From: Escherichia phage RB32
Length of the DNA stretch: 64,000 bases
Direction: 5' to 3' (one strand)
Sequence record: NC_008515.1
How positions within the stretch are numbered: position 1 is the stretch's first letter; every line of letters begins with the position of its first letter. Shown piece after piece: positions 15,097 through 63,545 of the stretch. Made by a program: the position numbers and the translations under genes. The notes below the pieces were generated by a model that worked only from the letters and a program-made list of their open reading frames with translations, ran no database searches and was not told where the DNA came from.

Positions 15097-15164
15097 GTAA
15101 TTCTCCTTTTATTTAAATTACATGATTATTTATAATAAATTCTCGCGGCTTTTAAGACGAACTG

Positions 15165-15754: not shown

Positions 15755-15955
15755 ATGGTACAAAAATTAATGGCACTTGTTAATGCCATCAAAGGTAATA
15801 AAAAGCGTATAGCTTTTACTATTTCTGTTATGGTAGGAATTTTACTCTGGAACTTTATTTTATCACCAATTGCAATTGCGCATGGTGTTAATATTCCAGT
15901 AGTTACTCTTGATACATTTGTAGATTTAGCATTTGCTTTAGTTGGGTTAATTTAA
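15755..15955 (+). CDS. small hydrophobic membrane protein on the opposite strand
   Basis: 66-aa ORF preceded by AAGGAGG 5 nt before ATG; two predicted TM segments; stop overlaps the gp61 stop. Confidence 0.5.
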   Translation: MVQKLMALVNAIKGNKKRIAFTISVMVGILLWNFILSPIAIAHGVNIPVVTLDTFVDLAFALVGLI

Positions 15956-16980
15956 ATCTTAGCATATTTAGATAACCGCATTTTAGCCATTAACCCCTGG
16001 GCAATATTATTTTTCATATATTCCATAATTTGTTCAGGGGTTGCACCTTCCTTTCTAATCATATCATTAACATCTTTTGATTTCCAGGGAGATTTATCCC
16101 AAAACATAACCCTTTCTCCTGCATCAACTAATTTAGTCATCCGTTTAATAGTGTCAGGGTGACGAGGTTCATTATCTAAGACCCACACTCGTCTATCTTT
16201 AAATGGAACAATTTCTAGGTCTAATTGACCACCCGTAATAGCTATACCATTTTCAATGAAAAGGGAATCGATAGGTCCTTCTAGAACATATACATCGCCA
16301 TCTTTAACTCGTTCGACTCCATAGATTTTTGTTGCCTCAGGATAAGCTTTGATGGTGATATATTTTTGAGGAGCATCTTTCTTTAATGCACGCCCTTGAA
16401 ACGACTCGGCTTTTCCGTTAGCATTATAAATTGGAATAACAAGACGAGGCTCAGGTATTTCCTTTTTATATGTTCCCGGTGCTATGCTATTAACTAATTT
16501 AGGCCATTCGGTTGTAAACCAAAGATATTTCCATTTATCCTTTGGAATACAACGAGCTTTTACATATTTTATAATTGCATGGTCTTCCGCCAGTTTATCT
16601 AATCTAACGCATGACGGAAGAGATTTAATTATTTTCTTCTCAGGTTGTTTAGGAAGTTCTTTAGGTTTTTCTACTGGACGACTTTTACCTTTTTCTTTTC
16701 TTATTTCAAAGATATACTCACGATATAAATCAGGTTCAAACTCCTTTAAATATATTCCGATTGGTGCATGATAGTTACAGTTATAGCAATGAATATTTCC
16801 TTCATTATTATCACCATAATACCATCCACGAGCTTTATTCTGGTCGGTTTTTGAATCTCCACAAACAGGGCATCTAAACCGTAATTTAAAAGTTGAACTA
16901 TTATTTACTTGTGTGAATTTAGGTAAATGAGCTAATGCACGATACGCAAATTCATTATCAATCCAAGGTATTGATGACAT
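15952..16980 (-). CDS. 61: DNA primase
   Basis: 342-aa ORF, N-terminal zinc ribbon CPVCGDS...CYNCNYH; length equals T4 gp61. Confidence 0.9.
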   Translation of the reverse strand: MSSIPWIDNEFAYRALAHLPKFTQVNNSSTFKLRFRCPVCGDSKTDQNKARGWYYGDNNEGNIHCYNCNYHAPIGIYLKEFEPDLYREYIFEIRKEKGKSRPVEKPKELPKQPEKKIIKSLPSCVRLDKLAEDHAIIKYVKARCIPKDKWKYLWFTTEWPKLVNSIAPGTYKKEIPEPRLVIPIYNANGKAESFQGRALKKDAPQKYITIKAYPEATKIYGVERVKDGDVYVLEGPIDSLFIENGIAITGGQLDLEIVPFKDRRVWVLDNEPRHPDTIKRMTKLVDAGERVMFWDKSPWKSKDVNDMIRKEGATPEQIMEYMKNNIAQGLMAKMRLSKYAKI

Positions 16981-16982
16981 TT

Positions 16983-17147
16983 TTACTCTTCTTTTTCTTT
17001 AGATTCCTCTTTTTTCTTTTTAGGAATCTGTTCAGGACCTTTATTTACTACAGCGCCTGATGTTGTTCCAGTAGAGATATTTTCAGGACTACCACCTGAA
17101 TCTCCAGCGACCATATCTTCTTTGATAAATTCTTTATATGTTTTCAT
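16983..17147 (-). CDS. small Lys/Glu-rich protein with capsid-targeting-like N-terminus, below ORF-track cutoff
   Basis: 54-codon ORF read by hand: MKTYKEFIKEDMVAGDSGGSPENISTGTTSGAVVNKGPEQIPKKKKEESKEKEE; GAGG 7 nt upstream; 2 nt before gp61 ATG. Confidence 0.4.
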   Translation of the reverse strand: MKTYKEFIKEDMVAGDSGGSPENISTGTTSGAVVNKGPEQIPKKKKEESKEKEE

Positions 17148-17192
17148 ATTAACCTCTATTCATAAAAGCATTAAAAATTTGGTCATCAATAG
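17145..17192. repeat. 48-bp direct repeat, copy A (3' end of the 118-aa gene plus RBS/ATG of the next gene)
   Basis: catattaacctctattcataaaagcattaaaaatttggtcatcaatag; copy B at 17503..17550 differs at one position. Confidence 0.8.
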
Positions 17193-17505
17193 ATGGCGCA
17201 GTAATATTTTCTGCATCATTTAGCAAATCATTAATTTCATCAGATAGCATAACACATGTACCTTTATTTCCTGTAATTGTTACTGCGCAATTACGAACGT
17301 TTTCTTTATTAAATTTTAGGTTAATATTTTCGTAATGAAAATCCTTTAATGCTGAATATATTTTTAAAATAAAATTGTCTTTTACTACAATAAACCCAAC
17401 CTCACTATTAAAACGTGGTTCATGGAAACTGTAATAAACCTTTTCATCTATAAAATCGTATGAAATTTTTTCCATTTTTAAATATGAAAATTCAGAACTA
17501 TACAT
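17149..17505 (-). CDS. hypothetical protein; C-terminal 14 aa shared with the upstream gene
   Basis: 118-aa ORF ending SIDDQIFNAFMNRG; flanked by the two 48-bp repeat copies. Confidence 0.55.
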   Translation of the reverse strand: MYSSEFSYLKMEKISYDFIDEKVYYSFHEPRFNSEVGFIVVKDNFILKIYSALKDFHYENINLKFNKENVRNCAVTITGNKGTCVMLSDEINDLLNDAENITAPSIDDQIFNAFMNRG

Positions 17506-17550
17506 ATTAACCTTTATTCATAAAAGCATTAAAAATTTGGTCATCAATAG
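17503..17550. repeat. 48-bp direct repeat, copy B
   Basis: catattaacctttattcataaaagcattaaaaatttggtcatcaatag. Confidence 0.8.
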
Positions 17551-18127
17551 AAACATTTACTTTAGACTGTTTTTCTGATGGTAATTCATATCCACATATT
17601 ACAATTTTGTGATCAATATCAAAATACACAGAAGCAATATGATTAATGATGTTTTCAGTAAAGTCTAAATCAACATCAATATCTTTTTGACCACAGCCCA
17701 AAGGATAAATAATGCGAGTAATTCGATTATCTTTAACAAATATTCCACCGACATACTCTGTGCTGCGTTTAAAGTCTACACGCCGACGAAATGAAAAATA
17801 TTCAGGCTCTCTATGAGCTCGGCTCATAGGACACAACGAGTAACTAGAATAAGAGATGTCAAATCCTACGCCTTCGATATGAGCCAAAGTGTCATGATTA
17901 AACCAATTATAATCGTACGCCAAATCCATTAGATTATAATATGTAAAAGGCACCGGATTAACATCATTAGTCACAAGCATGTAATTAGCAACTGCTATAA
18001 TTTCATTGTTTTTAACGAATACAAACCGTGATTGATGCGAATGACCTGGACCCGCGTTTTCACGATTAATGATATAACACTGAGACTTTTTATATTTGTA
18101 AGAATCATACTTATACATTTGAAACAT
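17507..18127 (-). CDS. hypothetical protein (61.2-like position)
   Basis: 206-aa ORF ending VSIDDQIFNAFMNKG. Confidence 0.55.
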   Translation of the reverse strand: MFQMYKYDSYKYKKSQCYIINRENAGPGHSHQSRFVFVKNNEIIAVANYMLVTNDVNPVPFTYYNLMDLAYDYNWFNHDTLAHIEGVGFDISYSSYSLCPMSRAHREPEYFSFRRRVDFKRSTEYVGGIFVKDNRITRIIYPLGCGQKDIDVDLDFTENIINHIASVYFDIDHKIVICGYELPSEKQSKVNVSIDDQIFNAFMNKG

Positions 18128-62004: not shown

Positions 62005-62478
62005 TTATTTGAATGATTTAACGTACTGAATAGAACCTTTACTATTCACGAAAGCGATTTTACCATTTTTATTATACATTGTAGCAGTACGTTGATAGCC
62101 ATAAGTTTGTTTACCAGATTGATAACCAACTAATGCGAAATTATCTTCACCCATTTTATTCTGTTTAGCGCGAATACGTTCATGACCATGTGCCATAAGA
62201 ACCTTAGCATCACCGGTTGCAATGGATCGACGAGTTTTTTCATCTTCAACTGTATTAACAAAGTCGTCAAATGAATCAAATTTAGCATGAGATTTATTAT
62301 ACAGTTTTCCATCTACTGCATAATTATATCCCTGTACATCCATCTCAACTTCTGTACCATCATCCAGTACAGCAGTGATTTTCTGTCCTTTTTTAAATTT
62401 CAAAAGATCAGTAAAAGATTCAGCAATAATTTGAGAATTAATAGCTGCTTCAGTAATAAATTCTTGATATGTTTTCAT
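62005..62478 (-). CDS. internal protein with capsid-targeting sequence (IP-locus protein)
   Basis: 157-aa ORF starting MKTYQEFITEA, the conserved T4 internal-protein CTS; located just upstream of e as the IP locus. Confidence 0.7.
   Translation of the reverse strand: MKTYQEFITEAAINSQIIAESFTDLLKFKKGQKITAVLDDGTEVEMDVQGYNYAVDGKLYNKSHAKFDSFDDFVNTVEDEKTRRSIATGDAKVLMAHGHERIRAKQNKMGEDNFALVGYQSGKQTYGYQRTATMYNKNGKIAFVNSKGSIQYVKSFK
62177..62209. repeat. 33-bp exact repeat shared with rpbA (30352..30384)
   Basis: cgttcatgaccatgtgccataagaaccttagca occurs in both genes, encoding [11 protein letters not shown] in each. Confidence 0.85.

Positions 62479-62572: not shown

Positions 62573-63545
<973 letters not shown>

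Follow-up and report, generated by a model that had tools for sequence, protein, structure and literature searches.

Gene 61.1, a small gene directly upstream of the DNA primase gene 61 in Escherichia phage RB32 (record NC_008515.1), encodes a 54-residue protein that looks like a substrate of the prohead protease gp21, equipped with a capsid targeting sequence (CTS) and carrying a copy of the arm of the capsid protein. The stretch of DNA analysed, called the window below, comprises 64,000 nucleotides of this genome. The first ten residues of the protein, MKTYKEFIKE, resemble the CTS that directs the internal proteins (IPs) of T4 into the prohead, and the following 28 residues are paralogous to the beginning of the mature capsid protein gp23 (gp23*). 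Judged from these sequence features, the proposal that 61.1 is targeted to the prohead and cut there after Glu10 has, in our estimate, an even chance of being correct; any role in the head is likewise putative. The phage RB33 record KM607001.1 was 100% identical over the whole window (record coordinate = window coordinate + 119), and the annotation was taken from it. The features relevant to the proposal, in window coordinates, were the following:

16983..17147, minus strand: gene 61.1 coding sequence, 54 codons plus a TAA stop (16983-16985), supported by the list of open reading frames (ORFs), the annotation, phrog_1823 and the ratio of nonsynonymous to synonymous substitution rates (dN/dS)
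17153..17156, minus strand: Shine-Dalgarno sequence GAGG, 5 nt 5' of the 61.1 ATG and inside the last codons of the upstream 118-residue ORF (AGAGGTTAAT-ATG, read from the sequence)
17118..17147, minus strand: 61.1 codons 1-10, MKTYKEFIKE, the CTS-like leader, with the predicted gp21 site I-K-E|D at its end (the bar marks the site)
17034..17117, minus strand: 61.1 codons 11-38, DMVAGDSGGSPENISTGTTSGAVVNKGP, the conserved module, a paralogue of gp23 residues 66-93 (the N-terminus/N-fist of mature gp23*)
16986..17033, minus strand: 61.1 codons 39-54, EQIPKKKKEESKEKEE, the variable Lys-rich tail with an A-rich coding tract, delimited from family alignments
15952..16980, minus strand: gene 61 (DNA primase), translationally coupled and downstream of 61.1
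62005..62478, minus strand: Ip4, a genuine internal-protein gene that served for comparison (MKTYQEFITE|AA)

Gene 61.1 is conserved and under purifying selection

KM607001.1 lists the ORF at 16983-17147 (minus strand) as gene 61.1 (RB33_033), encoding a hypothetical protein. Its T4 orthologue, also 61.1, reads MKTFKEFIKEDMVAGDSGGNPENISIGTTSGAVVNKGPEQIPKKKKEESKEKEE, and the intact N-terminus in the window reads MKTYKEFIKEDMVAGD... The initial annotation, made from the sequence of the window, had described a 54-residue ORF tightly coupled between a 118-residue gene and gene 61, and this was borne out: the 61.1 start lies one base past the stop of the 118-residue ORF, and 2 nt separate the 61.1 stop from the primase ATG. 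The protein matched phrog_1823 (54 residues) with an E value of 2.4e-33, and its C-terminal 46 residues matched the end of phrog_2086 (156 residues) with an E value of 2.3e-16. No Pfam match, to the Gp23 model included, was obtained even at E 10. Conservation in relatives had been named beforehand as a check, and tblastn matched 61.1 in 1432 phage records. The dN/dS values of the core ranged from 0.09 to 0.34, with synonymous sites near saturation. Gene 61.1 is a real gene under purifying selection. A literature search with several identifiers retrieved no publication on the function of 61.1, its CTS-like leader or its homology to the gp23 arm; the gene itself had been annotated before.

The leader resembles the capsid targeting sequence of internal proteins

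According to the T4 record, the internal proteins IPII and IPIII both start with MKTYQEFIAE|A, and the 61.1 leader MKTYKEFIKE was identical to them at 8 of the 10 positions. Targeting relies chiefly on residues 4 and 7 of the CTS and processing on residues 8 and 10 (Mullaney & Black 1996, summarised in PMC9026906); all four mapped residues were kept in 61.1, Y4 and F7 being identical. The protease gp21 cleaves after Glu in I/L-x-E (PMC12991175), and I8-K9-E10 of 61.1 fits this rule and forms the predicted site. Both the likeness to the T4 internal-protein CTS and the [IL]-x-E motif ending the leader, as proposed in the initial annotation, were thereby upheld. The same annotation had regarded the rest of the protein as low-complexity and Lys/Glu-rich, a description that held for residues 39-54 but failed for residues 11-38, which constitute the best-conserved, Gly/Ser/Thr-rich core.

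The 61.1 leader also lies inside the range of RB33's own internal-protein leaders, namely MKTYQEFITE (Ip4), MKTFKEFINE (Ip7) and MKTYQEFISE (Ip9), with MKTFKEFATK as a fourth start. At the DNA level, 28 of the first 30 nt of 61.1 were identical to the leader codons of Ip7; the similarity begins at the ATG, and the upstream DNA is not in common. When all six frames of the window were scanned with a regular expression for CTS-like ORF starts, only Ip4 and 61.1 were recovered.

A CTS-like N-terminus with a hydrophobic-x-Glu (Phi-x-E) site was also seen in UvsW.1 (phrog_1143), which is not known as a head protein and which starts with MLLEFKQFLYE-AS in RB33 (L002:12557-12787) and with MISFKRFLVE-AA in a Krischvirus (L012:18274-18510). 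Either the CTS-like pattern is not specific, or UvsW.1 may itself be a candidate for packaging. A comparison of leader co-variation with the internal-protein leaders in the Krischvirus was void, the sole other ORF with a similar start there being UvsW.1.

The module after the leader is homologous to the N-terminal arm of gp23

In a BLASTP comparison with RB33 gp23, residues 2-38 of 61.1 aligned without a gap to gp23 residues 57-93, across the LTE65|A66 cleavage site, with 41% identity and an E value of 7e-8. Residues 11-38 of 61.1 correspond to gp23 residues 66-93, the first 28 residues of mature gp23*. The 61.1 family profile, searched against all PDB sequences, matched only T4 gp23 (E 3.3e-6 for the precursor and approximately 1e-4 for the mature chains), with no other match up to E 10, and hhalign of the family against gp23 gave a probability of 94%. 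The similarity was confined to gp23 residues 57-100. The module invariants G, D, G, I, G, T, G and G-P were the same in the gp23 proteins of RB33, a Krischvirus and a KVP40-type vibriophage. The presence of a paralogue of the gp23 cleavage junction and N-terminal arm directly after the leader strengthens the reading of the leader as a CTS.

Over the LTE|A site and the first approximately 28 residues of gp23*, the two proteins share a gapless Gly/Asp/Ile/Thr/Pro skeleton, but 61.1 lacks the HK97-fold body of gp23 (A, P and I domains) as well as its 65-residue delta propeptide, and the module is followed by the Lys-rich tail in 61.1 and by MGMVRR...P-domain in gp23. In the unexpanded head, gp23* residues 66-105 are disordered, internal and probably in contact with the scaffolding core, and mutations in this region alter head length; after expansion, the segment is externalised as the N-arm/N-fist, where it makes intra- and inter-capsomer contacts and forms part of the Soc site (PMC9546572). 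AlphaFold predicted the 61.1 module alone to be disordered, with a predicted local distance difference test (pLDDT) score below 50, in line with the disorder of the gp23 arm before expansion. In some public records, 61.1 homologues carry the label 'major capsid (domain-containing) protein'. This label is misleading and wrong, because the match is limited to the gp23 arm and no Pfam Gp23 match was found.

A cleavage-type junction is present across the family

The junction between upstream sequence and module was surveyed in 85 module-bearing proteins for which upstream sequence was available. A hydrophobic-x-Glu-x sequence stood directly before [M]VAGD in 82 of them, with Glu as P1, and the P3 residue at the junction was Leu (57), Ile (15), Met (6), Val (2) or another residue. 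The three exceptions lacked the P1' residue only and still read L-M-E, M-Y-E or M-L-E, so that hydrophobic-x-Glu occurred in 85/85. The junction matches the published gp21 specificity and the gp23 arrangement LTE|A. Short forms of the protein, found in three lineages, kept a leader and Phi-x-E, and none started at the invariant Met12; the Krischvirus short form reads MIGFKQFVEENKLKE|DMTAGD and the Tulanevirus one MKTF...IQVDE|DVVAGD. The three shortenings (T4-group, Krischvirus, Tulanevirus) were independent, and the retention of a leader and Phi-x-E in each lineage suggests that a cleavable N-terminal extension is needed. An internal start at the invariant Met12 of 61.1 was also considered and appeared unlikely, because the sole purine-rich stretch is separated from this start codon by 2-3 nt.

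The shortness and compositional bias of the protein, together with the CTS-like beginning of UvsW.1, would suit a chance resemblance or a non-functional ORF. This explanation is effectively refuted by the conservation in 1432 records and the dN/dS values, and the PHROG of its own, the gp23-specific profile match and the invariant junction likewise oppose it; the probability we assign to it is practically negligible.

Architecture, position and shortening of the 61.1 family

The relatives examined came from Acinetobacter, Aeromonas, Pseudomonas, Vibrio, Krischvirus and RB69-type phages. Most were 127-165 residues long and consisted of a helical N-domain of approximately 100 residues followed by the same module. 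The N-domain pattern (YAYRFIRLMQK..W.A...GIID..G...KRP.T.EEK..YT.FH) was found in RB69-type phages and in most other genera and was absent in RB33 and T4, while 61.1 fits the family module pattern Phi-x-E-x-MVAGD...NIAsGtTsGAV..GP with a basic tail. The tail is basic, of the KKRK type, in most 61.1 relatives. RB69-type phages belong to the same subfamily as T4 and keep the long form (...EEQQKEIFKELPLFE|DMVAGDSGGSPQAIASGTTTGAVVNKGP...), and the DNA homology between the RB33 and RB69-type genes starts at the Glu10-Asp11 codons. On these two grounds, the short T4/RB33 form is evidently a recent truncation, in which an IP-type leader stands in place of the N-domain. The junction helix of the long form, KEIFKELPLFE, could be aligned in frame with MKTYKEF-IKE in a hand reading of the alignment, and the leader may have originated either in situ or by capture from an IP gene.

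With an exhaustive HMMER search (cut-off E <= 0.001), 1704 representative clusters were collected. Many of these comprised proteins of 160-470 residues that shared only the N-domain, followed by degenerate junctions; the N-domain-only clusters fell in phrog_2086 and phrog_18642 and had no Pfam domain. No relation of the N-domain to gp67, gp68, gp22 or gp40 was detected (hhalign probability below 1%). In the giant phages SPN3US and phiKZ, head-internal proteins have long N-terminal propeptides that the prohead protease removes at A-x-E, and the long form of 61.1, with its N-domain of approximately 100 residues, x-x-Glu and the remainder, is similarly built; by analogy, the N-domain may be a propeptide. 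In the T4-group protein, a 10-residue CTS takes the place of this long N-domain, in line with the general situation in T4 (PMC5694885). A further likeness concerns gp67/PIP, gp68 and the 10-residue propeptide of gp24, which are small, are cut by gp21 after Glu and leave only peptides, as predicted for 61.1; gene 61.1, however, is early-transcribed and does not belong to the 20-24 block of head genes, and its product is unrelated in sequence to gp67 and gp68.

In RB33, T4 and five annotated relatives, gene 61.1 was flanked by the helicase gene 41 and the primase gene 61; the record of Vibrio phage VS1 is unannotated, and a KVP40-type phage related to VS1 lists gp61.1 directly before primase. 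In the stretch fetched for six distant straboviruses, dmd, tifA and adfA were not annotated near 61.1 in five (Aes012, PspYZU05, Apostate, FL15 and VS1). The occurrence of 61.1 beside primase in distant straboviruses without annotated island genes suggests an ancestral 41-61.1-61 order, with island genes upstream of 61.1 in T-even and RB69-type phages. In the RB69-type phage NRG-P0074, spackle and an immunity gene were found upstream of 61.1. The ancestral cluster comprises uvsX-40-41-61.1-61, in which gene 40 is a head-vertex assembly gene.

Such a position would suit an accessory protein acting at the replisome, with the gp23-like segment and the CTS-like leader as relics: the gene lies between or beside helicase 41 and primase 61, it ends 2 nt from the primase ATG, it is early, and it encodes a Lys-rich tail. 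Nevertheless, the conserved residues are exactly those of the gp23 arm, the cleavage-type junction is universal, and no similarity to replication proteins was found in Pfam, PHROGs or PDB. Moreover, position is no proof of a replication role, because gene 40, a head-assembly gene, shares the cluster. We consider this explanation hardly probable.

The neighbourhood also bears on the idea that 61.1 is an additional internal protein, packaged through its CTS, trimmed by gp21, retained with the DNA in the head and injected as an immediate anti-defence factor. Gene 61.1 adjoins the dmd/tifA/adfA 'anti-TA (toxin-antitoxin) island', whose remaining genes have been proposed as candidates (PMC9391042), the CTS-like leader with its I-x-E motif would provide for packaging, and the Lys-rich tail could hold the protein on DNA. 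The T4-type internal proteins (IPI, IPII and IPIII; Ip4, Ip5, Ip7 and Ip9 of RB33) share with 61.1 the leader MKT[YF][QK]EFIxE, its near-identical codons and a small size. In contrast, they are hypervariable and occupy the hyperplastic e/57B loci, with Ip4 below two late motifs, whereas 61.1 has a conserved position in the 41-61 interval and a conserved core. They carry Ala at P1' and are basic (PMC9026906), whereas 61.1 carries Asp, its predicted mature part is slightly acidic (9 acidic and 7 basic residues, counted by eye), and its core is a paralogue of the capsid protein rather than an effector-like domain. In addition, long forms without a CTS are the majority in the family. The finding of 61.1 in the same 41-61 interval in all seven Straboviridae genera sampled, with a relative close to primase in one pelagiphage, points to a conserved function and not to one shaped by an arms race. 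As for the island genes themselves, dmd, tifA (61.4) and adfA (61.2) resemble 61.1 in encoding small proteins from the same early transcription unit in its neighbourhood, but they occur in T-even relatives only and inhibit specific toxins, while 61.1 is more widespread; the family searches in Pfam and PHROG showed no similarity of 61.1 to these genes. An anti-defence activity is suggested by the adjacency of dmd, tifA and adfA upstream, and the idea is speculative; injection of 61.1 as such a factor, raised in the initial annotation, seems quite unlikely to us.

Early transcription of 61.1

A sigma-70-like promoter was located 5' of dmd, with no terminator-like site after it, and the T4 61.1 RNA has been classed as early (T4 infection time-course data). 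In the same T4 time-course data, ipII and ipIII likewise combine early RNA with late protein, so that early 61.1 RNA is compatible with packaging. T4-type late-promoter motifs (TATAAATA) were present on the minus strand at the places expected, at 15127, upstream of soc, and at 63081 and 63094, upstream of e/Ip4. In the window as a whole, TATAAATA was rarer than expected (6 found versus 11 expected).

Early transcription without a late promoter would be appropriate for a cytoplasmic decoy that never enters the head and titrates a recogniser of nascent gp23 or free gp21. Possible targets are a chaperone or protease of the host, an immune sensor that detects the capsid protein, and gp21, for which 61.1 would be a pseudo-substrate limiting off-target cleavage. 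The specific likeness of 61.1 to the exposed disordered N-terminal segment of gp23 and its cleavage site, together with the location of the gene at the edge of the anti-defence island, is in favour of such a decoy. Both gp23 and gp21 are documented immune triggers: CmdTAC binds gp23 (PMC11618068), and the CD-NTase (cGAS/DncV-like nucleotidyltransferase) of a cyclic oligonucleotide-based antiphage signalling system (CBASS) becomes active upon cleavage by gp21 at an LPE loop (PMC12991175). However, sensor binding usually triggers abortive infection rather than its blockade, and an IP-type targeting leader would be unneeded in the cytoplasm. The deep conservation of the family, a marine pelagiphage relative included, is also unusual for a counter-defence gene. 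Mimicry of the Gol/Lit site was set aside, as the segment shared with 61.1 ends at approximately gp23 residue 100 and the Lit/Gol determinant, which we take to lie at approximately gp23 residues 93-122, would be mostly downstream of it; this, too, speaks against a decoy. Altogether, we regard a purely cytoplasmic decoy as unlikely.

A putative role of 61.1 in the prohead

Under the proposal of prohead targeting and cleavage, 61.1 would be made from the early dmd-to-61 transcript and would persist into late infection. Its leader would dock the protein on the scaffolding core of the assembling prohead, where gp21 would cut it after Glu10 (I-K-E|D). The freed 44-residue peptide would resemble the free N-terminus of gp23* and might bind the partners of the gp23 arm, which would be the prohead's scaffold core or the sites in the capsid lattice where the arm docks. 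In this manner the released peptide could act in head assembly or maturation.

Several observations weigh against this proposal. Position P1' is occupied by Asp in 61.1 and by Ala in the sites read for gp23 and the internal proteins. CTS-likeness is probably not fully specific, because UvsW.1 carries a similar N-terminus. No TATAAATA late-promoter motif was found upstream of 61.1 on its strand, unlike soc and e/Ip4, and the 61.1 protein was not quantified in the T4 infection time-course proteome. Neither the T4 particle mass-spectrometry paper nor its supplements mention it, no PDB chain corresponds to it, and the literature search yielded no report of its presence in proheads or virions; these negatives also count against an injected anti-defence protein. 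A 4.5-kDa peptide might leave the head via the 14-17 Å capsomer openings like other core fragments (PMC9546572). When the modules and gp23 arms of RB33, the Krischvirus and the KVP40-type VS1 were compared, cross identities were 13-16/28 and no preference of the module for its own gp23 over the others was observed. Ongoing co-evolution of module and gp23 is not supported within Straboviridae, as the module was no closer to its own gp23, and an insertion in VS1 61.1 was not mirrored in VS1 gp23. Finally, a function in replication would likewise accord with the close coupling of the gene to primase.

A broader possibility, to which we assign a small probability, is that 61.1 provides a trans-acting copy of the gp23 arm, made before gp23 across the T4 superfamily, as a structural element or as a decoy. 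In the structural version, 61.1 would fill docking sites for the arm that are vacant wherever gp24 pentamers or the portal stand in place of gp23. In the decoy version, it would pre-empt hosts that sense nascent gp23 or gp21 activity, such as those with CmdTAC-like systems or protease-tripwire CBASS.

The assembly of the T4 head is among the best-dissected morphogenetic pathways, and the gp21 substrates and head components are treated as a complete list. If prohead targeting and cleavage are correct, a conserved T4 gene with an IP tag, a capsid cleavage site and the capsid protein's arm would be a new player in the head. The family also bears on the relation between the 10-residue CTS and longer targeting domains, as the replacement of a domain by a tag seems to have been caught within one subfamily, and the leader of 61.1 could offer a second natural CTS with which to load cargo into T4 heads. 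Should the decoy explanation be correct instead, 61.1 would represent a new counter-strategy against capsid- or protease-sensing immunity.

Variation in the family and around gene 61.1

Three long-form relatives (P0070, P0072 and P0082; 239-251 residues) had an extra conserved C-terminal domain of approximately 90 residues after the Lys tract, with the pattern …FSFKA[IL]G[AG]NSVVVEA…VLAY[IV]KE.T.L[IV]W[KR]T. In the RB69-type NRG-P0074, a perfect hairpin, GGCCTTAAATTAATTTAAGGCC, was located between the long-form 61.1 and primase (L010:2269-2309); it is absent in RB33 and may be a regulatory or terminator-like element that was lost along with the truncation.

In Pelagibacter phage HTVC008M (L011:3489-5544), the family was seemingly split into a 201-residue ORF with the N-domain, a 123-residue ORF and a 359-residue ORF, a few kb upstream of primase. 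The 359-residue ORF starts with MKTFTDF and continues with a motif resembling the capsid N-terminus (IANVAGDG), a Lys tract and a further C-terminal domain, which also occurs in metagenomic proteins of approximately 290 residues (P0124, P0135, P0141 and P0179). The 61.1-like ORF of this phage reads …QQED-IANVAGDGAVSMPP…KKKK and its capsid protein …FLGE|IANVTGSAVANWDP…, the two having the same start and the same shortened length. This pair gave no BLAST match (E 0.18 for a metagenomic relative) and is a hint only.

Unlike T4, RB33 carries an additional 118-residue ORF (17149-17505, minus strand), which separates 61.1 from 61.2. This ORF is paralogous to the C-terminal half of 61.2/AdfA (17507-18127, minus strand; 34% identity, E 2e-8), and the C-terminus IDDQIFNAFMN[KR]G is common to both. 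A 49-nt direct repeat (98% identical, 17145-17193 and 17503-17551) spans the 3' end, the ribosome-binding site and the next start codon, and resembles the trace of a recombination event in the anti-DarT gene. The A-rich tract encoding the 61.1 tail reads AAAAAGAAAAAAGAGG (16986-17033, minus strand). T6-type relatives (P0002 and P0004) have a 62-residue variant whose frameshifted tail (…KKKKRNLKKKKSKNVINTLD) would extend into the start of primase, which suggests slippage-prone variation at the 61.1/61 junction.

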